NCBI GenBank assembly: GCA_964016885.1
Contig: OZ024741.1
Location: forward strand, 86,676,001 to 86,740,000
From: Eledone cirrhosa
Taxonomy: Eukaryota
DNA: 64,000 bases
Reading direction: 5' to 3'
This document shows, piece by piece, positions 36,480-57,740 of this stretch. Under the pieces are notes generated by a model that saw only the letters and a list, made by a program, of their open reading frames with translations, ran no database searches and had not been told where the DNA came from. A program made the translations under genes and the position numbers. How positions within the stretch are numbered: the first letter of the stretch is position 1; each line of letters opens with the position of its first letter.

Positions 36480-36870
36480 AGGTTGATGGGAAGAGGTCAG
36501 ACTGTCTCACCCTTTGCATCTGGGTAAGGGGAAAATGTCTAATTTCAAATGTCACAGTTAGTCTTTTGCTCCTTCCCTCATCCTAGTTGCTGCGGTAGTG
36601 ATGGTCACTGCATTCGTAGCCAAACCAAATAGAATTCGATTCGAAAATACCAGGAATTATCGGCACACTATTTTTTCAGCCTGTAGCAATCGAAATGTTT
36701 GGAGTAACTGGGCCACTGATAATAGAGTCCTTGTCATCGTTGACGGCTTGCCTTACAGAAGTTTCGGGAGATACCCGCGAGAGTGCTTGGTTATTCTAGC
36801 GCCTTAGCTTTGCTATTACTCGTGCCAATTCTGCGAGTGTATTGGCTTGCCTCAAAAAAGTATTAGAGGG
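36480..36870 (+). mobile_element. Decayed 3' end (RLE domain) of the CRE-like family
   Basis: Alternate frames give FQPVAIEMFG and AWLF*RLSFAITRANSASVLACLKK, homologous to 4320-4511. Confidence 0.75.
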
Positions 36871-39441
36871 AGGGTCCAGCAACCTTGTAGTGTGTGATTG
36901 AGTGTGCCGGTCTGCTATCTCACCTTTCTTCCTTATTATTTCCCTCCTTTCCTTTTCTTCTTTTTTGTACTGTATATCTGCATAGTCTTACGGTTATTAA
37001 ATAAGCCGAATACTCTGTGTTTAAAACCTATATAGTCTTGTTGCAAAATGAAATGAGGTTGGATATTCTCGTTTTTGTTGTTGGGTTATTTCTCATCTTA
37101 CTGATAATTGTTGTGGAAAAAGGGTGCAGGCATGGCCAAATGGTTAAGAAATTCATTTCGCAATCCGGAGGTCCAGGGTTAGGTCTTAACATATAACATA
37201 TATTGGACAAGTGTCTTTTGCTGTAGTTTTTGATTCATCCAAGCCTGTGAATGTGTTTTGGTAGAAGGATTTGTTGGTGCCACTCTAAAACGCACGGAGT
37301 GCTTTTAGAGTGGCACCAACACAAAGTTGTTGTGTCCTGGACACAATTGAAGAGTTCTATCAACTCTTTGGCACGTTTTCTATGGCCGAATACTCTTCCT
37401 AATGTGAACCACTTTACAGGATGCATCTTTTGTGGCATCAACAATAGAGAGATTGTCATGTCTGTGACATGACTGAAGAGCCCCCAAACTGTTTTGGTAT
37501 GCTTTCTACCACTGGGTGCCCTTCTTAACACCAGCCACTTTACAGAGTGTACTGGATACATTTTATTGTAGCCTTATCCCTCACTTATAGGGTGGAAGTG
37601 ATGACTTGGCCTAAGTGAAGCATGTTTAGGGGAGGAAGGGTAAGTAAGACGGATGATAGTTATGATGTCAAGGGTGAGTGATACCAAGTGTGACAAGTGT
37701 GGTGGGATTTAAGGGGCGATAGGGAGAAAAAGGGTGAGAAATTATTTCATGGGTATATGACAACTAGTAGATTTAGAGAGGAAAAGTATGGGGGATAACC
37801 TCTGAATAGGACAGACACAAAGAGCTATGAGTAGTGTCATGGGATTTAGCAAGGTGATGAGAAGGAGGAGGGTTGAAGGTGATCATGGATAGAATGGTTG
37901 GGGTACAGTGATGGCGAGAATAATTACTAAGGAGTAATGGTGCTGGGGGTATGAATGAGTCAGGTCACATTTACATTCTATACTGTTAGGTGAGTTTTCT
38001 CCAGTACAACATGTTGCCAATCCTCGCAGTCCTTTATTGTGAGATTCAGTTTCCTAAGGTCGGACTTTTCTACTTTATTCCATGTCTCGTACACGAGTCC
38101 TATTGACTAAGATTTCTTTGCCTTTCTTTATACATACATCTGTCATCTTCCATATGCATCAAATGTTCATACTACACTACATTCAATTCCTCTTATACCC
38201 AGTTTATCTCTCAGCTCACTTATGTTACTTTGTTTATGTACAATGATGTTCCAATTATATTGGTGCAAGTCAGACATGTAGAAAAGACATGAAAATGGAT
38301 GGAATTCCAAAGACGCAGGAATGACCTGGCACAATGGTTAGTGCCAAGTCATTCTTGGGGGAGAAGGCACAATATAACAAGAAGAGGAGGGATGAGTAAA
38401 TCAGGACTGCCTAAGTTGAGGTGGCACAAGACAAGTTAACCTTGAGAAACAGAGACCATTGTAGTGGTAGTAAAGAAGCAGGGAAAGAAGGCAGCATATC
38501 TGCACACCAAAGACTGGAGTATGTCTGAGTGACTTTATGCTAGTTAGTTGAGTGGGTCATCTCTAGATACAATTCAGGATGTCTGTGTGTGTGTGCAGCA
38601 CCCACCACCCTAGACACAAGAGCAGCACCACATCATGGGTTGCATTTGAGTACTGCCGAGGATCAGCAATTGTTGAGGACAAGAATTTTAAAAATACTTA
38701 AAAGGAAAGACAAACCCCCAAGATGCAGTCCTAGCTATGCTAAGTGACACATGTTCTTATTGGTCAAGAGAGGTCATGGGGGTTAAAATTGTTGCAGGAT
38801 CTAAATCAAACTACTAAATTGCAAAGAAAACAACCAGGCCAAAGTGTATATTAAAAAAAAAAAAGTATGTTACTTCAATATGGAGTGAAGGCATCTGAAG
38901 TAAACTTTAAAACAGAAGGATGTGTGTGGTTATGAGTCACATACTGGAAGTAACAGTGATCCTATGGGTGGAAGGGGAAAGGAGAGGACCCCTGTCCTTG
39001 TTCAGATTTAACATGAGAAGTGTCTTGGATCTCAGGTGAAACCCTAATTTCTGGTCAGAGTTATGGTGTGAGTATGAGTCTTGGATTATGCAGCTAAACA
39101 AGAATGACAATCAGAGAGGACTGGCAATGTAAACAATTTTGCGTTTTTCCATCACACACATAATTACCTATCTAGCAGTGGTACACAGGTGCTGAATATA
39201 TATACATATATTTGTTTTGCAAGGTTTTTGATATGAAACTGTGGGTCAAAACAAATATTGTTATACTTGGGGAGGGTCATATTGTTATAATATTGCCAGA
39301 AATAACAACAACACACACTCATTGTTTGGTTTGGGTTGGTTTTCGCTTCTGTATCTTTTATATCTCCATAGTTAATTTATTTGGCAATCAATGTTTATCA
39401 TTGATTGACCAACGGTTAAAAATATATATATAAATATATAT

Positions 39442-39495
39442 ATAGTCTATCAAAGTTCTTTCGTCACACATCTGCGACATCATCACTGGTACTAT
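39442..39495 (-). ncRNA. Candidate degenerate minimal hammerhead ribozyme at the Penelope 3' end
   Basis: Minus strand atagtacca-GTGATGA-t-gtcgca(gatg)tgtgac-GAAA-gaactt-tgatagactat: core boxes around a 6-bp stem II; first core base is G instead of C. Confidence 0.5.
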
Positions 39496-41300
39496 CATGT
39501 TTTCTCCCATTGTATTGTAATGTCTACGCCATTTTTTAAAATTTATTTATTTATTCTTGTCTCTGTCTCTGCGCATGCGTGTGTGTTTAATGTTTGGTGT
39601 GTTTTTGTATTCTATCTTTGTTCACTAGTGTGTGTTTGTATGTGTTTGTTGTTGTACTTGTGTATATATTTATTTATTTATATTTCCCTTAAGTCAGTAT
39701 TGTTTGTTTGGGTATGGTTGTTGTTGTTATTCCATTCATTCTTTCTGTTCAACTTCGGTCTTCTTAGTTCTATCTCAGTTGCTTCTCTGATTTGCCTACC
39801 TGTTGAGTCATTTCTATGCTTAGATATTATTTTAATTTCTATGTTGTCTACATTACTGTCATCTCTTTGTTCATGTAGTACTGGACGTTTTTTTGTCTTT
39901 TTAGTTCCCCCCAGTGTTGGTGTATACTTTCTCCTATGCTTTGAGCTGTCTCACCTATGTATATCATTGTCATGTTTCTGCAAGTACCCTCTGTACATCT
40001 TATGCTATAGACTACATTTCTAGTTTTACAATTTATCTGGGGGTTCATTCTACATATAACACATTTCTTATTCGTACAGTGGGTTTTCTTAAAGGGGTAT
40101 GTTTTGCTGATCAGGGATTTTATGGTAGTTCCTGGCTTTTCTACCACTTTAATCTTTAGATGGGTCTTTTTTTAGGGCCTTTCTACATTGCTAAGCTAAT
40201 TTCCCTCCAGGAGTAGCATCCACAAACATGACACTCTGTTATCTCTGGTTGTTGTGCAATGAAGTGGCTTTCCCTATCTTATGTTTAGTCCTATCTAAGC
40301 TATTCCATGATTTGCTCCTGTATAATTGGCAAATTCCTTTCATGTCCATTTCTATGAAGGTCTTATATTTCTCTGTGGCTCCTTTGTATACTCTGATTCT
40401 GTCTCTTTGGTTGTAGCCAGAGAACTGCATGCGATTGATGAAGTGTTGGATGTGTCTTTCCATTTCAGTTGGGTCACACATATGGGACACATTCTTCATC
40501 ACTCTTACCAAGTCTGCGATCAGAATATTAAACTTAGCACTATTGGACATTGCTGAGTTTTTGAGTATCAGGTATTTGGAGGCCATGGGCTTAGCATAGT
40601 GTGAGTGGAGAATTTGGGCCCTCTCGTCTATAGTGTTTATATAGAGTTCCATGTCTTATACTGGTAGTCTATTGTTAGGGTGTTTGGAAGGGTAATCAAG
40701 GGTTACAGTTATACTCTGGTGTATGGAATTAGGTATTTGCTGGATGCTCTCCATTGTGCTACTTTCTAATTCATGTTTATTAGTACTCTCTTGTGGGGGT
40801 GTTCTTATTACTATATTAATATCGTCTACGTAACGAGAGTACATGATGAGTGCTATGGAGTTCTCTTCAAGGAGTTCTCTTAGTTTCCTCTCCCACCATA
40901 CCATAAATAGATTGGCAACATCCCCAGCCATGCTCACGCCAATGGTTGCTCCCCCATTCTGGGTGTAGATCTTTTTATTAAATTTAAACATATGGCCCTT
41001 TAGGGTAGTTTTAATACTAGCCCCTATTGCATGTGCGACCATTTTTCTCACCTGATCATTGTTTGTGGGGGTCCTATATGGCTTTGGTCCATCCGTTCCA
41101 TCTTCCTATGGGAGTCTTTTTAGCCATTGAGGTTATGGTGGGGGGGGGGGGGGGGAGTATATCTCTTATAGGTTTTCTGGGGCAGAAACAGCTAAGGTCA
41201 TGATTATCTAGGTATTCGGTGTCATAAGTAAGTCTAAGTAGGAGGCCCAGTTCATCTGTGTCGACATCGCAGAACTCCACTTTGCTCTCACTGATTATTT
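39442..41300 (-). mobile_element. Decayed Penelope-like element (RT, Cys-rich linker, GIY-YIG endonuclease)
   Basis: ORF 40656..41051 YTQNGGATIG...YSRYVDD; 40239..40652 thumb (HYAKPM, MQFSGY); 39848..40147 CTNKKCVIC, NVVYSIRC, IYIGET. Confidence 0.88.
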
Positions 41301-41302
41301 CT

Positions 41303-41358
<56 letters not shown>

Positions 41359-41559
41359 TCATGAGTTTTATATCCTTTTGTTTTAGCGGTGGCACAGAGC
41401 ATCAGCCGACAACGTTGTTTCTAGATTATTGTACTTTGTCAAGATTGTGTATCTCTTTCTGTCACTCACTAGAACTCTCAGGAATATATAGTATTCTCTA
41501 AAGTATACATCAGCTGATTAGCCTCATTTGCTAATCGCTCGGTATGCAAATAAGGTTAA

Positions 41560-41870
41560 TCAGCGATGGTAGACCCCTTATCTGGGATGCTACATGTTGC
41601 GACACACCTTGTCTGACAGAAACTTGGTCCATTTAACGACTAGTCCAGGCTTCGATGCTCATCGGGCTGAAGAGAGAAAACTGTTGAAGTATCGGTTGCT
41701 CTCCGATAGTTTTGTGGTCGAGCCTGTGACAGTGAAGATTTTCGGTATTCGTGGCCCTCGGACCACAACCTTACTGTTATTGGAGTGGAGTTGGCTTCAA
41801 GCACTAGTTAGCCCCGCGAGCTGGAGTGGCTGTTCCAGTGCGTCCCCTTGCCTTCCTCTTGGGTAACCTT
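41560..41870 (+). mobile_element. RLE-domain fragment of a second CRE-like family
   Basis: PLIWDATCCDT, then AEERKLLKYRLL...VEPVTVKIFGIRGP. Confidence 0.65.
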
Positions 41871-42142
41871 TTCCCCAGTCTCTCTACTGGGACTACGAGA
41901 TTGTCTAACCCTTAAACATATTTCTTTTTTGTTCTCCTCTCAAGGTTACAGGACAACTAGCTTTGACTCCTTTAGTGTAAACTAGCAGAATGGCCCGGCG
42001 TTGCTTGGGATTTGCTCTGGGGTTCTTATATATTTGATATATATTTATCCTTATCGAGCCTCGTGAAATAAATATATTTTGTTATTGTGTATGCAAAAAT
42101 ATCTGTACACGAATATATAATTATATTATATATATATATATA

Positions 42143-42703
42143 TAGCAGCGGAGGTGGGTGTTCGGAAAGTACAATAACTAGGGTAAGAACGGTATGGAAG
42201 AAGTTCGGAGAGCTACTGCCACTGCTAACTGCAAAAGACTTTTCCCTCAACATGAAAGAGAGACTGTATGATGCTTGTATACGAACAGCAATGTTACATG
42301 GTAGTGAGACCTGGGCGCTGTCTGTGGAAGACTTGCGTAGATTAGAAAGAAACGAAGCCTGCATGCTCCGATGGATGTGTAATAGTAATATACGCGAACG
42401 GCAAAGCATAAATGAATTGAGAGAGAGACTGGGCATAAGAGGAATCAAATGCTGTGTGCAGGAGAGGCGGTTGTGTTGGTACGGACATGTGATGCATATG
42501 AAGGATGACAGCTGCATAAAAAGGTGCAGAGCACTAGAAGTCGATGGAAACCGTGGAGTGGGGAGACGCAAGAAGACCTGGGATGAGGAAATAAAAGCCG
42601 ACCTTACCCAATTACACTTCTCAAAGGCGATGACACACAACTGCGACCTCTGGCGTCACGCAGTAATACAGAAGACCGGACGTAAAATGGTGATGATGAT
42701 GAT
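42143..42703 (+). mobile_element. RTE 3' fragment inserted into a TA-rich tract of a Helitron unit
   Basis: ORF 42087..42728 SSGGGCSES...LHGSETW...; (TGA)n tail. Confidence 0.85.
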
Positions 42704-45700
42704 AATATATATTAAAATAACAGGTTAAAGTTTAAGCAAAGAATCGCTGCTTTCTCCCTTAACGGGATCTTCTGAAACTAAAAAAAAAAACAATCTGGGA
42801 ACGTAGAAGTAAATATTTCTAAAAACGGTACACACTATATATACAGACAGATATTATATGGGCGCAACTTTGTAGCTATGTATCTATCTAAAAAAAAGAC
42901 TAAGAATTATAGAGAGATCGCCTAATACGGTCCATGGGGCATTGAAAATTTGAAATTTTCTTTGTTCAAAACACTCACACGACCATAAGTATTACATGTG
43001 TAAAGTTTGAAAACAATCAGTTGGGTGGTTCTCGAGTTTTATGGAGTCAGACAGACAGACATTCTCTATTTTAGATATATAGACTAGCAGAAATCCACAC
43101 GTGGGCGGTTTTCTGCTAGCAAATCTAGTGTATATACTGATATTGTTGAGATTTGGATGAGAAATGTTTTCGGCACGACATGTTCACCGTCTCTCGGTGT
43201 GTCTTTTATGCATGTATAAATATATATGTTATCTAAACGGTGAAATCTTTGAAATAAATATATGTTAAAACGAAAAAGGAGAAAAAGAGATTAGTGACGG
43301 AAATATAAACGTTATGATACATAAACGTTATGATATAACGATTGAAATATATAAACGTTTATGATAAAACGATGGAAATAGAAACGTTTATATATAATGA
43401 TAAGCCGAAACACGCGTAAGCCGAAACACTCGTAAGTCGAAACACTCGTAAAGCGAAACGTATAAATAAAGATTAATGTAATGAATTTGAAAAGCATAGA
43501 GATTTGAAACCGCGTCTATAGGTGTGTAAATTTCAGACGGACAGACAGACAGACAAACAAACAGAGAAATGCCCATTATATATTATAAGTAGACTATCTA
43601 GTACCCGTCCTTTGGACGGGTGAAGTAGCTTTCGATGTAGCTCATTAAAGTAAACATAGTAAATTTGAATACATAGAAGAAATACGTACTTTATGTAAAC
43701 ATGAAAACTTTAGGCACTATTCCAGCGAAATAATTAATATGTGAGCTCGGTGTTATCCGTTATCCGGTAAACATTTTTTTAACAACATTAAAAGCGCGTG
43801 ATGGCATATATTACACACACAGAAATGTATATATATTTCTGTGTGTATATATATATATATTTCTGTGTGTGTATATATATATATATATTACACACACACA
43901 GATATGTATATATGTTTCTGTAGCACTCCTCAAGTACCCCTCTCCCTCCCGCTATCCCCTCTTGTAGTCTGTCTCTTTCTTTCACTCTCACTCTCTATCT
44001 ACGCGTGCGCAAAAACATTCTCACGCGCCCACGTGTTTTAGCGTCTATTCACTCTCTCTCTCTCTATCCCTCTCTCCCTCCCGCTATCCCCCTCTCGTAG
44101 TCTGTCTCTTTCTTTCACTCTCACTCTCTCTCTACGCGTGCGCAAAAAACATTCGCACGCGCGCACGTGTTTCCACTGTCGGACAGACAGACAGAGAAAT
44201 TGCTGGTTATATGTTATAAGGAGATTACATATACATATGTAACTATGTATATCATCATCATCATCGCCATTATATATATATATAATATGGGCCGAAGCCG
44301 AAAAAAATTTTGTTTGGCAGCTCTAATTGCGCCTTAATTTTATTCAAAAAATTGTATACTAACATATTCGAATACCAGGCACTATTGGAATCAACAATAG
44401 CAGCGTCCTGAGGGTCATTACAAAACACAAATTCGCGAGAATTAGTGTTTAAGTCTTGGAAGGTGGTAAAAAAAATCAACAAAATCTTCCATTCTTTTTT
44501 AATAAAAATTTATTTTTAATAATATTTAAATAACTGGCGGTTAGAAAAAAATATTCCTATGAAATTTTAATCATACCATTAGGTGTGAATAAGGAAATAT
44601 TTTTTTTATTGTCAAAACAAATGTTCAAAAGTTAAACTTCAATTTTTTGAATTATTTCCAATTTTTTCATGAAATTGAACACTGGACATTGGCTGCTGGA
44701 AATGGAAATTAAATCGTATTTAATTGTATTTAAATTTCTAACCTTATTTTATTATTTATATTTTTTCAATAAGAAATTAAAAAAAAAGAAAAAAGAAAAT
44801 TAAAGAAAACAATTGAACAAATCAAACGTAGGTTATGGAACTGCGCAATCTGAATAATAAATTACCTCATCAGCACACAAATTCAATGGCAACCTTCTTC
44901 AAACCACAAATTCAATGGCAACCTTCTTCGCATGGTGTCAAGTCAGAACCGCCTCGAACTGGTTACTTCTGGCTTGTACAAGGTGTCTCTGTAGCAACCA
45001 GCGAATCCCTCGGTCGGCCTCAGTGACCAAAGTCAGTGGAGAGAGGAAGGTAATATTTCTGTAGCACGTGTTTTAGTGTCTATTCACTCTCTCTCTCTCC
45101 CTCCCGCCTCCCCCTCTCGTAGTCTGTCTCTTTCTTTCACTCTCACTCTCTCTCTACGCGTCGGACAGACAGACAGAGAAATTGCTGGTTATATATTATA
45201 AGGAGACTAGCAGAAAACCACCCCGTGGGCGGTTTTCTGCTAGCAAATCTAGTCTATATACTGATATTGTTGAGATTTGGATGAGAAATGTTTTCGGCAC
45301 CACATGTTCACCGTCTCTCGGTGTCTCTTTTATGCATGTATAAATATATATGTTATCTATACGGTGAAATCTTTGAAATAAATATATGTTAAAACGAAAA
45401 AGGAGAAAATAAATAACTGGCGGTTAGAAAAAAATATTCCTATGAAATTTTAATCATACCATTAGGTGTGAATAAGGAAATATTTTTTTATTGTCAAAAC
45501 AAATGTTCAAAAGTTAAACTTCAATTTTTTTAATTATTTCCAATTTTTTCATGAAATTGAACACTGGACATTGGCTGCTGGAAATGGAAATTAAATTGTA
45601 TTTAATTGTATTTAAATTTCTAACCTTATTTTATTATTTATATTTTTTCAATAAGAAATAAAAAAAAAACAATAACAAAAATTGAAGAAAAAAATTGAAC

Positions 45701-46850
45701 AAATCAAATGTAGGTTATCGAATTGCGCAATCTGATTAATAAATTACCTCATCAGCTGCAACCTTCTTCAAATGGTCCTTATTATCAGCAGCAACAACCA
45801 CAAATTCAATGGCAACCTTCTTCAAACCACATATTCAATGGCAACCTTCTTCGCATGGTGTCAAGTCAGAACCGCCTCGAACTGGTTACTTCTGGCTTGT
45901 GCAAGGTATCTCTATAGCAACCAGCGATTCCCTCGGCCTCAGTGACCAAAGTCAGTGGAGAGGGGAAGGTAATATTTCTGTAGCACGTGTTTAGCGTCTA
46001 TTCCCTCTCTCTCTCTCCCTATCTCGCTCCCGCTATCCCCCTCTCGTAGTCTGTCTCTTTCTTTCACTCTCACTCTCTCTCTACACACGTGTTTCCACTG
46101 TCGGACAGACAGACAGAGAAATTGCTGGTTATATATATAAGTAGACTAGCAGAAAACCACCCGGTGGGCGGTTTTCTGCTAGCAAATCTAGTGTATATAC
46201 TAATATTGTTGAGATTTGGATGAGAAATGTTTTCGGCACCACATGTTCACCGTCTCTCGGTGTGTCTTTTATGCATGTATAAATATATATGTTATCTATA
46301 CGGTGAAATCTTTGAAATAAATATATGTTAAAACGAAAAAGGAGAAAAAGAGATTAGTGACGGAAATATAAACGTTATGATACATAAACGTTATGATATA
46401 ACGATGGAAATATATAAACGTTTACGATAAAACGATGGAAATAGAAACGTTTATATATAATGATAAGCCGAAACACTCGTAAAGCGAAACGTATAAATAA
46501 AGATTAATGTAATGAATTTGAAAAGCATAGAGATTTGAAACCGCGTCTATTTGTTTCCTTGGCATTTTTTACAGACGGACAGACAGACAAACAAACAGAG
46601 AAATGCCCATTATATATTATAAGTAGACTTGGCATAGTGTCAAGTCAGAACCGCCTCGAAGTGGTTACCTCTGGCTTGTGCAAGGTGTCTCTATAGCAAC
46701 CAGCGATTCCCTCGGCCTCAGTGACCAAAGTCAGTGGAGAGGGGAAGGTAATGTTTCTATAGCGACAGTGTTTCTCTTGGTAGTACCAAAGTGGAGAAAG
46801 GAAGGGGAAAGTAATATTTCTGTAGCACCTACATTTGAGTTTTAGGGAAG

Positions 46851-46892
<42 letters not shown>

Positions 46893-46900
46893 GAAATGCC

Positions 46901-46912
46901 CATATATTTCTG

Positions 46913-46973
<61 letters not shown>

Positions 46974-46999
46974 CACACACAGAAATGTATATATATTTC

Positions 47000-47036
<37 letters not shown>

Positions 47037-47162
47037 TACACACACAGAAATGTATACATATTTCTGTGTGTATATATATATTTATATTACACACACAGAA
47101 GTGTATATATATTTCTGTGTGTATATATATATATTACACACACAGAAATGTATATATATTTC
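46901..47162. repeat. Self-complementary minisatellite acacacagaaat-(ta)n-atttctgtgtgt with (TA)n spacers; shorter copy at 43810-43920
   Basis: Directly visible repeated palindromic units. Confidence 0.85.
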
Positions 47163-47281
47163 TTAGAACAAAATTAATATTAATGTTTTGCTGTTCATAA
47201 CAATTGGAATTGAAAAATTACTCTTGAAATTATTAGTTATTTTATTAATGCTTAGATATGTAAAAATGAAGCAATGTTTCT

Positions 47282-47473
47282 AATAATTGTTTCTACTTTT
47301 GGCACAAGGCCAGCAATACCTAGTACATTACTGGTACTTTATTTTATCGACCCCGTGAGGATGAAAGGCAAAGTTAACCTCGGCGGTATTTGAATTCAGA
47401 CCTTAAAGGGATGTAACTCCATGCTATGAAGCATGGTGTCCGACTCTCTACTGATTCTGCCAATCCACCGCCC
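47282..47473 (-). mobile_element. tRNA-derived SINE, family A
   Basis: Same head and body as the 12362 copy. Confidence 0.8.
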
Positions 47474-50400
47474 TAATGTCTGTACGTAATGAGGGAGTGA
47501 GAGGGGAGAGAAAGAAAGGCAGAGGTGAAGTGACGAAGTGACTCTCTCCTCCTCCTCCTCCTCCTCCTCCTCCTCCTCCATCTCCCCATTCGTCACAGCG
47601 ATAGAGGGGAGGAATGTTAGTGTGTTACAAAGAGAAAGAGTGACAGTGAGAGAAACAGACAGACTAAAAGAGAGGGATAGCTGGAGAGAGAGAGATAGCA
47701 ACCACGCGCGCACATGTTTCCACTGTCGGACAGACAGACAGAGAAATTGCTGGTTATATATTATAAAGAGACTAGCAGAAAACCACCCGGGGTCGGTTTT
47801 CTGCTAGTCTATATATCTAAAACAGAGCATGTCTGTCTGTCTGTCAGCTCACTAAAACTTGAGAACCATCCAACCGATTGGTTTCAAACTTTAGACATGT
47901 AATACTTATGGTCCTGTGAGTGTTTTGAGCAAAAATATTTCAAATTTTCAATGCCCTAGGGACCGCATTGGGCGATTTAGCGTTCTCTCTATATAATTCT
48001 TAGTCTTTCTTTTTAGATAGATACATAGATATAACGTTGCGCCCTTATAATATCTGTCTGTATGTCTGGCTGCCTGCATTACGTCATTATGACGCGCTCA
48101 GTGTGTGTGTGTATATATATGTATCGTAATGCAGACAACAAGACATAGCTTTCCTTCCCCTCTTCCAGCGTCTCTCTCTCTCCCTCCCGCTATCCCCCTC
48201 TTGTAGTCTGTCTCTTTCTTTCACTCTCACTCTCTCTCTACGCGTCGGACAGACAGACAGAGAAATTGCTGGTTATATATTATAAGGAGACTAGCAGAAA
48301 ACCACCCCGTGGGCGGTTTTCTGCTAGCAAATCTAGTCTATATACTGATATTGTTGAGATTTGGATGAGAAATGTTTTCGGCACCACATGTTCACCGTCT
48401 CTCGGTGTGTCTTTTATGCATGTATAAATATATATGTTATCTATACGGTGAAATCTTTGAAATAAATATATGTTAAAACGAAAAAGGAGAAAATAAATAA
48501 CTGGCGGTTAGAAAAAAATATTCCTATGAAATTTTAATCATACCATTAGGTGTGAATAAGGAAATATTTTTTTATTGTCAAAACAAACGTTCAAAATTTA
48601 AACTTCAATTTTTTTAATTATTTCCAATTTTTTCATGAAATTGAACACAGGACATTGGCTGATGGAAATGGAAATTAAATCGTATTTAATTGTATTTAAA
48701 TTTCTAACCTTATTTTATTATTTATATTTTTTCAATAAGAAATAAAAAAAAACAACAAAAAAAATTGAAGAAAAAATTGAACAAATCAAGTGTAGGTTAT
48801 GGAACTGCACAATCCGATTAATAAATTACCTCATTAGCAGCAACCTTCTTCAAATGGTCCTTATTATCAGCAGCAACAACCACAAATTCAATGGCAACCT
48901 TCTTCAAATGGTCCTTATTATCAGCAGCAACAACCACAAATTCAATGGCAACCTTCTTCGCATGGTGTCAAGTCAGAACCGCCTCGAACTGGTGTCTTCT
49001 GGCTGGTGCAAGGTGTCTCTATAGCAACCAGCGATTCCCTCGGCCTCAGTGACCAAAGTCAGTGGAGAGAGGAAGGTAATGTTTCTGTAGCACGTGTTTT
49101 AGCGTCTATTCACTCTCTCTCTCTCTCCCTCTCTCCCTCCCGCTATCCCCATCTCGTAGTCCGTCTCTTTCTTTCACTCTCTCTCTACGCACGTGTTTCC
49201 ACTGTCGGACAGACAGACAGAGAAATTGCTGGTTATATATATAAGTAGACTAGCAGAAAACCACCCGAGGTCGGTTTTCTGCTAGTCTAAATATCTAAAA
49301 CAGAGAATGTCTGTCTGTCTGTCAGCTCACTAAAACTTGAGAACCATCCAACCGATTGTTTTCAAACTTTAGACATGTAATACTTATGGTCCTGTGAGTG
49401 CTTTGAGCAAATTTTATTTCAAATTTTCAATGCTCTAGGGACCGCATTAGGCGATGTAGCGTTCTCTCTATATAATTCTTAGTCTTTCTTTTTAGATAGA
49501 TACATAGATATAACGTTGCGCCCTTATAATATCTGTCTGTATGTCTGGCTGTCTGCATTACGTCATTATGACGCGCTCAGTGTGTGTGTGTATATATATA
49601 TATGTATAGTAATGCAGACAGCAAGACATAGCTTTCCTTCCCCTCTTCCAGCGCCTCTCTCTCTCCCTCTCGCTATCCCCCTCTTGTAGTCTGTCTCTTT
49701 CTTTCACTCTCACTCTCTCTCTACGCGTCGGACAGACAGACAGAGAAATTGCTGGTTATATATATAAGTAGACTAGCAGAAAACCACCCGGGATCGGTTT
49801 TCTGCTAGTCTATATATCTAAAACAGAGAATGTCTGTCTGTCTGTCAGCTCACTAAAACTTGAGAACCATCCTACCGATTGTTTTCAAACTTTAGACATG
49901 TAATACTTATGGTCCTGTGAGTGTTTTGAGCAAAAATTATCTCAAATTTTCAATGCCCTAGGGACCGCATTAGGCGATAGCGTTCTCTCTATATAATTCT
50001 TAGTCTTTCTTTTTAGATAGATACATAGATATAACGTTGCGCCCTTATAATATCTGTCTGTATGTCTGTCCGTCTGCATTACGTCATTATGACGCGCTCA
50101 GCGCGATTCCCTCGGCCTCAGTGACAAAAGTCAGTGGAGAGGGGAAGGTAATGTTTCTGTAGCACGTGTTTTAGCGTCTATTCACTCTCTCTCCCTCCCG
50201 CTATCCCCCTCTCGTAGTCTGTCTCTTTCTTTCACTCTCACTCTACGCACGTGTTTCCACTGTCGGACAGACAGACAGAGAAATTGCTGGTTATATATAT
50301 AAGTAGATTAGAAAAACAATTTCGAATTAGAATCAAGTAGCGTGCCAGGGGAGACAACACCGCTTTCGCTTAACTTTCAATTAAAAATAAATATTACTTC

Positions 50401-51107
50401 AAAGTAACAATTCGTATTTTGTCTAACTTGTCCGTAGAGAAAGGCAACAGTTGGCACTTTCGTATTTGTGCATGTTTTATATATGTTAGTCTCCCTCTCT
50501 CCCAACAAACGAACTCTAAATTTTATTATATACAGAAATATGTTAATGGTTAGATTACTTTAGTTCTTTTAACGTAAATTATTTGTATTTAATGAAGAAA
50601 AGACTATGACAATCTTTATCAAGCTGATCTAGCCGTCACTCCTTCCGGCCTTAATGACACTTCGAGTAAACTGATACTTGGAACTTCGTTGATTTAATGT
50701 GCATTTTAGCTGTTATTTCTAGCATCACGGATAGGCTCATCGTTGATACGTAATAGTTATTTTGCTGGTTGATGATTTTCTTTTTGCATTTTTTTTTATC
50801 ATGGTTTCGATAAAGGAACAAATTGATATAAAGGGTTCTTCTGAATGTTAGGAACCCTTTACTTATGAAGCCGGTGTTATTCAAGTAAGGGAAAATTGCC
50901 AACGACACCGCCTATTTAAAATCTTTACAACTTCATCTGATATAAAAAGTCCTACGACAAAAATAATATCATAATATATTATGGAAGAAGTTAATCACTC
51001 GAACACTTTTAACTGAACCATAATAGATTATACTTCATCTAATGTATATACACCTTGTAAATAGAGACGTTGTGTACCCAAGACAAAAAACTTTATCATA
51101 ATACATT

Positions 51108-54100
51108 ATGGAAGACATTAATCACACAAACACAACAGTTTTCAACACTCTATATTCAGTTACAGTGGCATACAGTAGCGAGAAACCTTTAGGTAGTGAA
51201 ACATTTACTAAACAAATATCTTTATCTTTACAGAAAAATATTCCTGAATATCGCTTGAGAGTTATAGGAAGAAATTTTTTTTGGAGAATGAACTTTTCAC
51301 GCACAAAGAAATACACAAGGAAAAACCCTTCTCCTGTGAAATATGTGGTAAATATTTTATCTATAACAGTAATTTATCTAGACACAAAAGAATACACACC
51401 AAATAAAAACCGTTTTATTGTGAAATATGTGGGACATATTTTGTTTCTAAAAGTAATTTAAAAACACATAAAAGAATACACACCGGAGAAAAACAGTTTC
51501 GTTGTGATATATGTGGAAAATATTTCGATTCTAATAGTCTTATTAATCACAAACGTAGCCACACTGGTGAAAAACCATGTCACTGTGGAGTATGTGGGAA
51601 ATCTTTCTTTAACAATTCGAGTCTTGTTATCCACCAACGTAGACACACTGGAGAAAAACCATGGCCCTGTCTAATATGTGGGAAATCATTCTCAAATAAT
51701 TCAAGTCTTGTTATCCACATATGCAGTCACACTGGAGAAAAACCTTATCATTGTGAAATATGTAGGAAATCATTTATGATAAACAGTGTCTTAAAAACGC
51801 ACAAAAGAATACACACTGGAGAAAAACCTTATCATTGTGAAATATGTGGAAAATTATTCATAAATAATTCAAATCTTGTTATCCACATACGTAGTCACAC
51901 TGGTGAAAAACCCTTCCACTGTGATATATGCGGAAAATCCTTTGTCTCCAACATTATTTTAACAACACACAAAAGAATACATACTGAAGAAAAACTATTT
52001 CACTGTGAAATATGTGGGGAGTCTTTCATTAATAATTCAAATCTTGTTATCCACAAATGCAATCACGCTGGAGAAAAGCCATATCAGTGTGAAATATGTG
52101 GTAAATCATTTGTGATAAATAGTGTCTTAAGAACACACAAAAGAATACATACTGGAGAAAAACCTTATCACTGTGAAATATGTGGGAAATCATTCATAAA
52201 TAATTCCCAACTTGTAGTTCACAAAAGAATATATACTGCAGAAAAACCCTATCATTGTGAAATATGTGGAAAATCATTCATTAATAATTCTCAACTCCTA
52301 TTTCACAAAAGAATACACACTGGAGAAAAGTCCTTCCATTGTGATACATGTGGGAAATTTTTTGTCTTTAACAGCTATTTGGCAAAACATAAAAGAATAC
52401 ACACTAGAGATAACCCATTTCACTGTGAAATATGCGGAAAGTCTTTTGTTGAAAATTCCAAGCTTACAATCCACAAACGTAGACACACTGGAGAAAAACG
52501 GTATCGCTGTGAAATATGTGGGAAATCTTTCTCTCTTAATCGTAGTCTTGTAGTTCACAAACGTAGTCACACTGGAGAAAAACCCTATCATCGTGATCAT
52601 CATCATTATCATTTAACGTCCATCTTCCACGCTTGCATGGGTTTGGATGGGAGTTTTCCCACTTGAGGCAAGATTGGTTGTCCTGCTCGTATAGGACTGT
52701 CTAGCGGGTTTTCTACGGCTGGATGCCCTTCCTAACACTAACCACGTTTACAGTGTGGACTGGGGGGTTTTTACCGTGTTACCTACACGGCCACATTACA
52801 GCGTGGACTGTGTGTTTTTTTGTTGTGACACCTACACGACCTCATTTGTTTCGGACTGGATGTTGTGGTACCAACATAACTTCACATTTAAGGGGGTGGT
52901 GTGGGGGTAGTGGGACGGGGGTGTATTTTGTTAGAGGTGCCTACTGACTGTAGGTTTCGCTTTGTACTTAGGCAAGGCGGGTCTTCTGTATAACTGTGTA
53001 GCGCCAAATATCTCGGTCCAATGACATTGTCTTGGAGAGGTATAAGTGTGTGAGGTCGGAATTTATCAAGTCATCCCAGGTTTTTCTGGGTCTGCCTTCT
53101 CCGTGGCTACCGTCTATTTTTATCGCCCTGCACTTTTTTATACAGCTGTCGTCTTTCATGCGCATCACGTGACCGTATCAACGTAGTCTTCTCTCGAGTA
53201 AACAGCATCTGATCCCTCTTATTCCTAATTTCTCCCTTAGTTCGTTTATGCTTTGCCGTTCACGTATATTACTATTACACATCCAGCGGAGCATGCAAGC
53301 TTCGTTCCTCTCCAGTCTGCGTATATCCTCTGCACACAATGCCCAGGTCTCACTGCCATGCAACATTGCTGTTCGTATGCAGGCATCATACAGCCTGCCT
53401 TTCATTTTTACTGAGAACCCTTTAGCGGCCAATAATGGTATAAGCTCTCTGAACTTTTTCCGTCCCGTTCTGACTCTAGCTACTGTACTTTCGGAGCACC
53501 CTCCACCACTGCTGATTTTGTCACCCAGGTAAGGGAAGGTGTCCACTATTTCTATAGAACCATCTGTGCAATGGAATGAGTTAGTATTATGTGGGTACTT
53601 GCTGCTACTTATTGCACCAGAGCACCGGCCACATATAAAATCTATATTCTTAGTTAGCTTACCTGTGATCCCACTACATCTTTTATGCACCCATACTTTG
53701 CATTTGGGACATAAAATGGAGTTTCTGCCTACTCCTTTCCTACACACTGAGCATGGCCATTTCCCAGATGGGACCAGTGCCCTATTTTCCTTCCTACAAA
53801 CTAGAACTTTAGTCTTAGACAAGTTAACTTTAAGGCCTTTTGGTTCTAGGCCATGCTTCCATGTTTAGAATTTCTTCTCTAGTTCAGCCATTGATTCAGC
53901 TAAGAGCGTTAGATCATCTGCATATAGGAGTTCCCATGGGCAGCCGGTCTTGAGCTCCTTTGTTATAGCCTGAAGTGCAATAATAAATAGTAGGCGCCTA
54001 AGGACGGAGCCCTGATGAACACCAACTATTACGCTAAACTCTTCACTATATTCGTTGTTAATTCTAACCTTGCTGACTGTTTCTTTATACATGGCTTATT

Positions 54101-54190
54101 TGCAGGAAGTCATTTAGCTGTAGCAGTCTTTTAAAAAGACATGAACGAATACACACTGGAGGGGAAAGCATTTAACTGGGAAACATGATA
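51108..54190 (+). pseudogene. C2H2 zinc-finger gene (~15 fingers), disrupted by a frameshift (~51280), TAA at 51404-51406 and an RTE insertion
   Basis: Tandem CEICGKSF...HTGEKPYH fingers from ~51330 to 52590, open from 51407; finger resumes at ~54098 (ICRKSFSCSSLLKRHERIHTG). Confidence 0.8.
52588..54095 (-). mobile_element. 5'-truncated RTE LINE with long 3' UTR, inserted in the zinc-finger array
   Basis: ORFs 53865..54092 (GVHQGS, LLYADDL), 53178..53822, 52968..53168; (ATC)n tail at ~52594-52612. Confidence 0.92.
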
Positions 54191-55237
54191 AATCCTATGG
54201 CAAATCTAAATTTATTGTCCACCAAGTACATATTGTATCTTCCAGCAGGCTATCAATATAATTTCTTTTCATTCTACCACTGTTAGTGTAGGAGCCATCT
54301 GATGGCTCCTATAGAACAAGATCACTTGTAGTTCACAGCTGAATACTGACTGGAGAAAAAAATTATCTGTGAAATATGTTGGAAATCTATCTGAATTCTA
54401 GTCTTTTGATTTATAGAGAAAGATATATTTACTTATTTTTTATTCAAGATTTTCTTTAGACACCATCTCATTAAACATGACTGGAAAAAAGATGTAAAAT
54501 CTTATCACTGAAATTTTGGACAAAATAATCAAATTTTAATGTAAACCAAAATTTTTTTTATAAGAATCTTAATCTATGTTATAATTAATAATTATTAGAT
54601 GTAATTTTTGGATAGTCTAACTTACGTTTTTTTAAAAAATTGATTGACCTCTGAAAAAGATATTTGTAACAAAATCTATACTATAATAATAAAGGGAGGA
54701 GTGCGGGACAGCGTACGGTTTATATCTTTTAATCCACTTAGTAAAATAAGTTGGATTACTTTGAATAAATAATGAATGGATATTACATAATTTATGTACT
54801 AAATTTCATAACTCTTGATTAAATATAAATAATTTTATTGCTTATTTAAAATTGACTTCTTTTCAAAGTTTCAAATTTCTACACTTCTGGTATATTGCCG
54901 CTGCCACCAAACATACATCTATATGTATGAGTATATAACTATAATTGCACAAACACAAACTTACAAAAATACACCCTCACGGACATACATTCACACATAT
55001 ACATTTACACAAACACACATATACAGTCATGATAGCAGCATTCAGTGACTTGGAAATGGGAGAATAAAATAAAGTACAACTTTTTATTTATTTATTAACA
55101 ACACAGTTTAACTCTTTTTTTTTAAAAACTCATTTGTATAAAAATTTAATATAATGGTGACAGAACGAAAACACATATAATATATACAAAGTAAAGGGAA
55201 AGGAGAAAAAAATACACAAGCACATAATACACACATC

Positions 55238-57740
55238 TTAGACCACATAGAACAATATGCAGATGAAAGGGGTGGACAAACGAGCTGCTACCAGAGTAAA
55301 AGATAACAATATAGCGAGGAACACTGGGAAACCTCTATAATAATTTTTTAGGCAAGCGAGCACGCTCGCAGCGTTACCTGGGGTGATGGCGAGGATGAGG
55401 TGCTGGAACAACCAAGTGCCCTCACGAGCATCACCAGTTACCGCTGTATGGTGAACCGTCAGTGAAGCTAAGAATAAACAGGAAATCACAGCATCTCATG
55501 CAAATGTTTCAGGGTTCTGGTGGACAAAACGAAGAATGTGTTACCCCAGGGGCGGTTGGTGGCAGAAATAGTGCTTGTTCTTGTGGCTGGTCATCTTTAT
55601 CCTTATCAGAGTGAGTAGACAGGTGGTATGGAAGCCCAGGACATCAGATATTTCCATCACTATAGATCTGATAAGAAACTTATCAGGGAATGTAAACTTT
55701 GTTAGCTTGAGATCTTCAACCTGTCAGGTGACAAACCCTGGATCTGTCATTGCTCACTAGGTTGCTGTAGGTCATATCCTAGATTGATGGTTTCTCTCCT
55801 CAGTTTAATTCTGCAGTGGGAAAATCAACTGTCCAAATCACACGAAATGATAACATTGAGATTAGCATATCAAGGGAAACAAATGGAATCTCAAAATGTA
55901 TACTGTAGAGCCATAATGGCATTTGTGTTGCTCACAAATTTGGAAAACAAACCTGAAAAGAAACGCCTATTCAGAGACAGTTATTGTCTGACTGGGTACC
56001 AGTTGACTGAAGGTATGCGGTATCCATCCAAGCACTACTAGGGGGCAGGGCTGAGACATGCTGGTCAAACAGGTACATTAGGTTGTCCAAGACTTTATGG
56101 TGTCCCATTTATGTTGGACTAATGGGACTTCTGCAGGATGAAGGCCAAGTTAGGTAATTGTGGTAGGCTCTGCAGTGTTGTGGAGAACATTAAGGGCAAT
56201 GATAATTTAATGAGAGACAGAAGATCAAGGCAGGAAGGGAGACTTGCTGCCATCCAGTTTCGATGAAATGGAGGTTGCATATACCACACCAGATGGATTT
56301 ATTTTTAGTTCAGTGAAAAATTGGCTGCAATAAGGTATGCTGTGAAATGTATACATCAGAATATTGTCAGAGCTGCAATATCATAGGCAGATGTTAGTTA
56401 CGAGATATTATCATTAACTCCTAATATCCTTGACTACATGAAAAACCACATTAGCAAAACAATGCTGTAAATGCATCACATTAAAAATAGTCTTTACTCT
56501 AATAGTGCAAATATTTGATCCAAAAGACTGTTATTAACTCAATGTCTCGTACCACAGAAGACTACATTAGCAAGACATTCTAGAAAAGTACTAAACAGCA
56601 CAATGACTGCACCACATAAAAGATTGTTTTTACTCTAATCAAATTTTCATATCATTCTGTCCACTAGTAAAAATCAGAGGTTATAGAAAAATAAAGAGTT
56701 GAAGGCACTCTTGTTCCTAAGCAGTAAAGTAGACATGAAAGCATGTCACCTACAAACATAAAGCTGACACAGAAGAGGATAGAGAATTTCATTCACTTCC
56801 CTGTTGGAACTAGTCCATGTTGGAAAGGAGATGTTACCTACCAGAGAAGAAAGGAAGAGACAGAGACGAGCATTTACATAGACCTAGGCCCTCGAAACAT
56901 TTGGTCATTGCAGCATGGTCACAAGATTTTGGAGTCTGGCATAGACCACGCATTCAAGTTTCCTCAAGATTAGGTTGTCAAAACATTGCAGAGACGACAA
57001 GAATCCATATGAGTGACTGATTCTGAGCATATACAACTTAGGAATTAATAGGTAATTCCTATTGGGGCTTGATTACCACAATGCTTTTCAGTAATTACGG
57101 AAGGTTGCCATCTTGAAAGCTAGGTCAGTAATTGGGGCTCCTAGGGAGCACCATACTGATAGGGGAAGGATTCATTGAATAGATTTATAGTCAGCTGACG
57201 TGAAACTGAGTAGTTGAAGATCCAGTGCTTGCATTTGGCACTGTTGATATGTAGGCCTCTATGACCAACTTCCTCAATCACTGTCTTTGTAAATACCATC
57301 AAGATACAAGACATGCAAAACCAAGTCAGCCCCTATCTTAGTAACATCGTTAATGTCCAATGCAAATAGAGCAGGTCCGAGTTGACCGCCTCGTTGGACT
57401 CCCGAGGTGGAGAGTATCAATTGGTTACCAAAAGAGAGATAGGAGGGCTCCCGATAAGCAAAGATGTAGGGCTTGGTGGTCCTCTCCATAATTAAGCTGA
57501 AGATGACATCACGACTAATAGAGTGAAATGCCTTCTTGAGATCATGTATGAGGACAACATTAGGGATCTCAGAAAGAAAGTTGGTGAAAAACCCACATTG
57601 GTACCCACTCCCAGCTGAAGGGAAAATTCTGTAGACAGGTGGACTGAGACCGATGTCAAAGACACTTATGTGATGAACTGTATCAGAGTATTTCCAAATG
57701 CAATGGGGGCGAAGGTCGCCATTGAGTTTTACAAAGCTGA
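55238..57740 (-). mobile_element. Decayed, interrupted copy of the CRE-like family (3' end 55238-55490; RT part ~56790-57740)
   Basis: WLFQHLILAITPGNAASVLACLKN and AYREPSYLSFGNQLILSTSGVQRGGQLGPALFALDINDVTK match the 1394-4511 element. Confidence 0.8.

Follow-up and report, generated by a model that had tools for sequence, protein, structure and literature searches.

Structure of the array

How does a genome come to carry a string of unlike Helitron units joined end to end by copies of one palindrome? The question is raised by a locus within a 64,000-nucleotide stretch of an Eledone cirrhosa contig (the window), where a first-pass annotation had placed a Helitron array at 41982..50307. These limits proved exact, with CTAG at 41982-41985 followed by a host T and an A|TC junction at 50307. 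All seven of the annotated palindromes were found again, six of them exact (45207, 46146, 47772, 48291, 49250 and 49773) and one with a single mismatch at 43084; the six exact copies compare with none expected in 100 shuffles. Immediately left of every palindrome is a minus-strand TC head, giving CTAG|TC at all seven, and the reading of these junctions as Helitron tail-to-head joints was borne out. B-family plus-strand TC heads do begin at 47808, 49286 and 49809. They had been assigned to the same head family as the minus-strand head at 43083 and all are indeed of the B family, but the three plus-strand heads belong to another B subfamily.

Read along the minus strand, the host A|TC junction at 50307 leads through ten TC-headed segments to a B-family element running from 43083 to 41982. 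All ten unit heads and the resident head begin with TC, the seven palindromes end in CTAG, and three internal joints are non-canonical or nested. No RepHel frame was found in the array. The arrangement is not the head-to-tail series of same-family units of a rolling-circle tandem array, as several kinds of unit are present and the series ends on an unrelated resident. The units are non-autonomous Helitrons, a variant with a palindromic end, and the observation is a real one. We rejected an assembly artefact because like units differ from one another by 3-5%, because the outer junction is present in public contigs and because related arrays occupy two paralogues. Short-read contigs of a public sample match the outer junction (50287-50426) without difference; the four runs holding these contigs come from one study and may represent the assembly's own sample.

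The landing site is a resident B-family non-autonomous Helitron (41982..43083, minus strand) with its TC head at 43083, an ordinary hairpin and CTAG|T at 41982, and the same element stands without the array in a paralogue (L156/L159). It contains what we take to be a LINE-like fragment at about 42143-42680, in whose frame (42072-42725) Pfam returned no match. This fragment and a presumably SINE-like piece (47280-47475) in one of the units below both recur elsewhere in the window. Exactly between the host A and the resident's TC, with no target duplication, lies a 7224-bp block of A-headed units (43084..50307), all on the minus strand. Next to the resident is a 510-bp unit (43084..43593) made up of an A' head, an X body and the mismatched palindrome (43084..43119), which has the X body on its right and the B head on its left. 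It is followed by a unit (43594..44224) with an A head, a W microsatellite block and tail2, a different Helitron 3' end, joined through ATAG to an A' head; the tail2|A' joint is a fixed internal junction, being present in all eight exact genome copies, on several contigs. An A head with an AT-rich body (44225..45206) runs into the internal A head at 44224 through an A|TC junction. The next unit (45207..46145, 939 bp) comprises an A head, an AT-rich body, an X body and the palindrome at 45207-45243, and its neighbor (46146..47771) carries a long A head part with the SINE-like piece and a W block, an X body and the palindrome at 46146-46182; an A' head at 46627 within it is reached through a non-canonical CCAAG|TC joint. 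Genome-wide, the joints CCAAG|TC (window 46628) and CTAGATAG|TC (window 43594) to A' heads are recurrent, fixed internal junctions.

The outer part of the array contains three two-headed B1-type units. The first (47772..48290) consists of an A head, an inverted B1 5' part with its plus-strand TC at 47808, and the palindrome at 47772-47807. After a 959-bp unit (48291..49249) with an A head, an AT-rich body, an X body and the palindrome at 48291-48327, which shows 28 differences in 931 positions from 45207-46145, come the second (49250..49772; plus-strand TC at 49286, palindrome at 49250-49285) and the outermost (49773..50307; plus-strand TC at 49809, palindrome at 49773-49808), the last meeting the host at A|TC 50307. 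Beyond it, the host flank (50308..51290) directly adjoins a B head in paralogue P4. Local duplications of 600-1100 bp with 94-95% identity are present within the array, and its three B1 units share a loop start, GA, absent from the other B1-type units listed, indicating that part of the array arose by local duplication.

The palindrome genome-wide

The genome search with tabulated flanks that the annotation had proposed yielded 1657 exact copies of the palindrome in the 3.0-Gb genome, 660 of which have T outside both CTAGs. We fetched the loci of the first 50 palindromes on one contig (C1), together with 20 more regions drawn from these 660. Nine of the first 50 belong to an ordinary family, Y, whose elements measure about 440 bp, have a TC head of their own and are followed by host DNA. 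Each of the 41 others has a Helitron head on one side, the exceptions being in form only (one head follows two extra bases and one has a mutated first base). An X body, as at window 45244, is carried by 23 of these 41, and the remainder have one of a small number of other bodies, namely B1 (an inverted B head piece), W (a TA microsatellite block) or Z. Where an A head was in reach in these non-X, non-Y loci, it was found on the side of the body and directed toward the palindrome, with the abutting head on the other side. As anticipated, the palindrome is not confined to the interior of one fixed consensus element.

A pattern search found 1450 A heads genome-wide. Among 30 examined, 21 reach a palindrome within 1.5 kb and the other nine gave no clear answer. 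The palindrome is the end of a young non-autonomous Helitron family with one common A head; an older family, Y (5-7% in age, clean statistics being drawn from 44 rows), has the same palindrome and inserts normally. The 37-nt sequence folds on either strand with its terminal CTAG within the stem, at -9 to -17 kcal/mol as DNA. Canonical Helitrons are outlined as having a 16-20 bp hairpin 10-15 bp from the 3' end (PMC13286980). The palindrome is a variant of this form, its GC-rich core ending 11 nt before the end and its stem continuing through CTAG. In Y loci (for example L044, L058 and L233-L240) the loop takes two reverse-complement forms, with a GAA or a TTC center; the minor form, seen in about 9-13 of the first 100 listed, is scattered over the tree in the manner of flip-flop termini.

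Probable targeting of Helitron heads

X-type ends are followed by TC in 699 of 719 cases (97%) and by TA, TG or TT in the remaining 20, the ends counted being those with T next and at most 105 of the 1657 palindromes falling outside the five counted classes. Of the 20, 17 abut mutated heads, two represent one duplicated landing in the TA run of an inverted A element, and one lies at a host TA. Accordingly, 716 of 719 X ends lie at TC or mutated heads, and the dispersed insertion at ordinary AT-rich sites that Y and the B/C families display is not the pattern of X. All 62 TC cases fetched without bias were head-like, and they represent many families. The control families behave differently: Y ends are followed by something other than TC in 159 of 173 cases and by TC in 14, with one of the nine Y ends among the first 50 C1 palindromes being head-like, and TC follows 10 of the first 100 of 4117 B/C tails, about five of them head-like by eye. 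On the target side, intact C heads number 1666, and CTAG precedes 46 of the first 100 (scored by eye, with a pattern that required A or G before the head; the A-head pattern was similar).

A heads themselves enter at A|T without target duplication, as seen in the empty paralogue described below and in the base preceding the nearest intact A head, which is A in 47 of 53 cases (CTAG in four and T in two). Among the first 100 of the 1450 A heads, 78 follow A, 21 follow CTAG and one follows TTAG. Beyond the ends of Y and B/C elements the ordinary target appears to be T-n5-TA(A/T), with T at +1 and TA(A/T) at +7 to +9. This strong consensus beyond AT resembles the elements' own heads. Because heads fit it, they are legitimate targets for all families, and a further tail type ending TTCAGCTAG that is joined to B heads at L068 and L074 indicates that other families hit heads at times. 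Only the A-headed family uses heads almost exclusively. This near-obligate insertion at the 5' junctions of resident Helitrons, the probable main cause of the array, had no place in the first-pass annotation. RepHel-coding elements also occur in tail-to-head joints, at L175:1795 and L183:9422 (element orientation), one lying after a CTAG end and the other being followed by a mutated C/B-like head.

Age and diversity of the partners

The sequences abutted by 82 X ends (their partners) fall into 27 clusters when grouped at 85% identity over 180 bp. Several are plainly unrelated, 75 of the 82 fall outside the two A clusters, and many partner families occur singly among the 82 loci. Fourteen loci taken without bias combine a complete X body with a C partner, truncated bodies having been filtered out; in these the X body lies 0.7% from its consensus and the adjacent C partner 3.9% (0.6% and 3.7% with CpG masked). 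The partner is older in all 14 (p=1.2e-4), and in 23 of 23 when exception loci are added; another set, which also includes loci picked as exceptions, gives 1.8% versus 4.8%. The first 24 partner bases stand at 2.1%, compared with 3.9% for the whole 250. Distances between X bodies and between their partners are uncorrelated (Mantel r=0.065, p=0.33, n=23), and the closest partner pair is 3.4% apart (n=23), whereas X bodies may be identical. Taken together, the old partners, the uncorrelated distances and the lack of any partner pair closer than 3.4% indicate that junctions formed many times on old residents. Partners do not co-evolve with the element.

An empty paralogous site

The annotation had called for empty sites; one was found, a paralogous one, and only one. 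A search with the right flank revealed, at a distance of 98 kb, a 99% identical paralogue that shares the left flank and the B element, including the LINE-like insert, and in which the right flank directly follows the B head. It follows that window 43084-50307 occupies the A|TC junction exactly and has brought about no duplication. Of the four paralogous zinc-finger gene units recovered, three have related arrays at the B head and one is empty, and in the B segment the empty copy is an outgroup, with 28-36 differences from the filled copies compared with 3-15 among them. Both the filled and the empty junction forms are present in public contigs. We considered allelic polymorphism and rejected it, since the second form matches paralogue L156 and is hence no evidence of an allele.

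The empty paralogue's B head is damaged by a 4-bp deletion. The filled B 5' parts are 9-11% from the empty copy (11% for the window), above the flanks (0-8% per 100 bp), and the raised divergence reaches the locus-specific LINE-like insert (6-8% at 42500-42700). The excess B divergence and the patchy identity suggest a history blurred by conversion between paralogues, and the array may conceivably have been lost from the empty site by a precise event. In two filled paralogues an additional W unit separates the B head from the unit that follows, which implies either that occupied CTAG|TC junctions are also entered or that the window lost a W unit. Window 36823-56471 and C2:86748768-86830000 hold four or more paralogous units, each containing the resident B Helitron; in two paralogues additional inserts have made the arrays longer, and a C2H2 zinc-finger frame lies at window 51407-52666.

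Relation to known systems

Target choice and entry by Helitron circles are the least understood step of the cycle. The two families described here share a 3' end and differ in their targets, so that this step could be tested by swapping about 30 bases; the head might in turn suggest a way toward a site-specific Helitron vector. Insertion at heads is also another way, apart from rolling-circle concatemers, in which Helitron arrays can form, and it means that genomic CTAG|TC junctions are not proof of circles. Helentron/HLE2 elements of the DINE-1 type have sub-terminal inverted repeats at both ends and a TT target, and were set aside because the ends here are TC and CTAG at A|T.

The nearest precedent is the maize r1 region, in which adjacent, dissimilar Helitrons stand head to tail with a CTAG|TC junction between them; this was explained by a second insertion, either at G|T or at the AT made up of the host A and the initial T of the resident (Du et al. 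2008, PMC2267711). That account concerns one case with the order left open, whereas here there are more than 700 junctions, with an order given by age and by the empty paralogue and with almost no solo elements. Like the present units, Helraiser and Helibat start with TC, end in CTAG with a GC-rich hairpin core 11 nt before that end, insert at A|T without duplicating the target, form CTAG|TC junctions and show an AT-rich bias 3' of the site; in that system RepHel is reported to nick at the 5' TC, the hairpin is the terminator, and circles with CTAG|TC insert at AT (PMC4778049, PMC5876387). In contrast, the stem here includes the terminal CTAG, which is present on both strands, and the accessible text on Helraiser describes AT sites genome-wide and no targeting of element ends (PMC4778049, PMC5876387). 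Maize Heltir and mosquito ATon resemble our units in having Helitron 3'-like sequence inverted and in inserting at AT, but they have inverted repeats at both element ends (PMC3422177, as cited there); our units lack these and have a single palindromic end and a TC head. Chimeric Helitrons of Fusarium (PMC5148889), silkworm (PMC3789558) and bat (PMC4224331), which arise by end bypass or self-insertion, are likewise new units made from nested or inverted copies that terminate at the first 3' end met, and in the passages searched from these reports neither a strand-symmetric end nor end-specific targeting was found. The precedents in the literature searched thus comprise one unlike maize pair, same-family tandem arrays, end-bypass chimeras and, by citation, Heltir. 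Neither near-obligate targeting of Helitron 5' ends nor a two-way palindromic end was found in the open-access main texts searched (including PMC13282606, PMC13286980 and PMC12001565), and a literature search directed at octopus and cephalopod Helitrons likewise returned no such arrangement.

A model for growth of the array

The array is a stack of A-headed non-autonomous Helitrons with palindromic ends that RepHel probably inserted at resident 5' ends, a reading drawn from sequence comparisons. RepHel supplied by another element would peel off the A-headed strand and stop at the palindrome's CTAG. A nick would be made at the resident's 5' junction, either A|TC or, where this is already occupied, CTAG|TC, and by strand exchange the incoming element would become joined at its TC end to the host A and at its CTAG end to the TC of the resident. 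Because the incoming TC would be joined to the host A, the new head would itself be a target and chains could grow; local duplication of units would add length. We infer such strand exchange at the resident's 5' nick from the way in which HUH relaxases integrate at their own oriT: the relaxase TrwC is reported to integrate only where its own nick site exists in the target, and since TrwC belongs to a bacterial conjugative system the analogy is one of mechanism only (PMC5714925). RepHel genes are plentiful in the genome (150 scored PF14214 matches of 3704 candidates). In 13 sampled RepHel loci neither a palindrome arm nor a detected A head was found; heads were found in four and tails in four.

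The likeliest determinant of targeting is the A head, since head targeting is shared by units with the bodies X, W, B1 and Z and is not a property of Y, which has the same palindrome and another head. The A head and the palindrome nearly always occur together, which makes their roles inseparable here. Y is older and may have used another RepHel. Somewhat short of an even chance, in our estimate, is a stronger proposal, that the A family is a hyperparasite. It would be unable to open targets alone, would enter only through RepHel nicks at true Helitron 5' ends and would occupy almost one in two intact heads in the family that chiefly hosts it; its strand-symmetric terminator would let every inverted landing found a family, and its head would be a natural site-specific tag for a eukaryotic HUH transposase.

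Three other routes to the array were weighed against insertion at resident 5' ends. Composite movement does occur and adds array length, because the tail2|A' joint recurs in eight of eight copies. The general form of this idea, in which an A-X unit could not end at its own palindrome and moved only with its downstream partner from a few founder junctions, is largely refuted and now quite improbable. The spread of fixed internal junctions (tail2|A', and CCAAG|A' at several loci) agrees with it, as do five partners seen in full, which are complete elements ending CTAG|T, and the near-identical partner starts of L021 and L042; however, partner divergence is roughly five times that of the X body, none of 23 are less than 3.4% apart, there is no Mantel signal, the 82 loci fall into 27 clusters, and the empty paralogue places the partner first, its locus-specific LINE-like insert included. 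A hybrid route, in which RepHel makes the 5' join only and the 3' side is completed when the resident recombines homologously with a partner copy present on the donor, is also improbable. It would account for filled B 5' parts that are 9-11% from the empty paralogue, above the local mean, and for first partner bases closer to consensus than the whole (2.1% for 24 bases versus 3.9% for 250), but the raised divergence extends into the LINE-like insert, even those 24 bases show three times the divergence of the X body, and the many partner families seen once in 82 loci would each need a founder of their own. Finally, rolling-circle concatemers or satellite-like tandem amplification of one unit would explain the 600-1100 bp local duplications at 94-95% identity and the 21 of the first 100 A heads that follow CTAG. 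Most junctions, however, join unlike families and most loci consist of a single unit with an older partner, making this very improbable as a general cause, and we retain it as a contributor.

Possible use of the palindrome from both strands

The first-pass annotation had also suggested that the palindrome can terminate on either strand, an old junction being reused in inverted orientation to build new units. For the plus-strand B heads of this array as launch points the suggestion fails. In 27 two-headed units a host A|TC before the B head was found in none and the palindrome in all 27, including L019, which a script scored as host and which has the palindrome with a short duplication. The B head is a fixed internal part of an amplified two-headed unit, and the heads at 47808, 49286 and 49809 are fixed passengers. 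As the origin of subfamilies, inverted reuse is supported by a precursor at L084/L085 and by reversed loops in six of 19 W-type units compared with none of 84 X-type. A unit inverted inside another A-headed element, or a head-bearing piece facing the palindrome, would let displacement end at the other CTAG and so found W and B1. We consider it somewhat probable that termination on the reverse strand was the founding event of these two subfamilies, as distinct from anything that happened at the three passenger heads. The loci L084/L085 have the form predicted for such a precursor: within the TA run of another A element lies an inverted X unit, and the head of that other element, at a distance of 786 bp, faces the palindrome. 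The sequences replacing the X body each start with T exactly after the reverse CTAG.

A possible but less probable reading is that the reversed junctions (B1, W and Z) arose by fold-back synthesis or hairpin inversion, the palindrome being a one-way, recombination-prone terminator; this concerns only the founding step of W and B1 and leaves the targeting of heads untouched. Loops of the ordinary Y family flip repeatedly, with 10 changes on the tree versus 11.1 in shuffles (12 of the 57 rows in that tree being of the wrong class or misaligned), and since these flips occur without strand switching they weaken loop direction as a tracer of it. Arm conversion is also seen, at L020 and in W units that end in GA and have forward loops, and 17 of 18 B1 rows have a forward loop, one being reversed, where a direct X precursor would give reversed loops. 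Set against this are the uniform T after the reverse CTAG, the existence of the predicted precursor and the loop directions of X (no flips in 84) compared with the equally young W, which is mixed (six reversed, six forward and seven unoriented). The forward B1 loops could themselves be reached in two steps, as suggested by L056, where a reversed W unit stands before a B1 head.

In L020 (near C1:58005863-58005957) the conversion consists of the start of a C head copied onto the B1 body. In W units at L061, L217 and L219 the start of the target head has apparently been copied onto the opposite arm, giving an inverted repeat longer than the palindrome, and the loops of L198 and L209 are expanded by runs of C.
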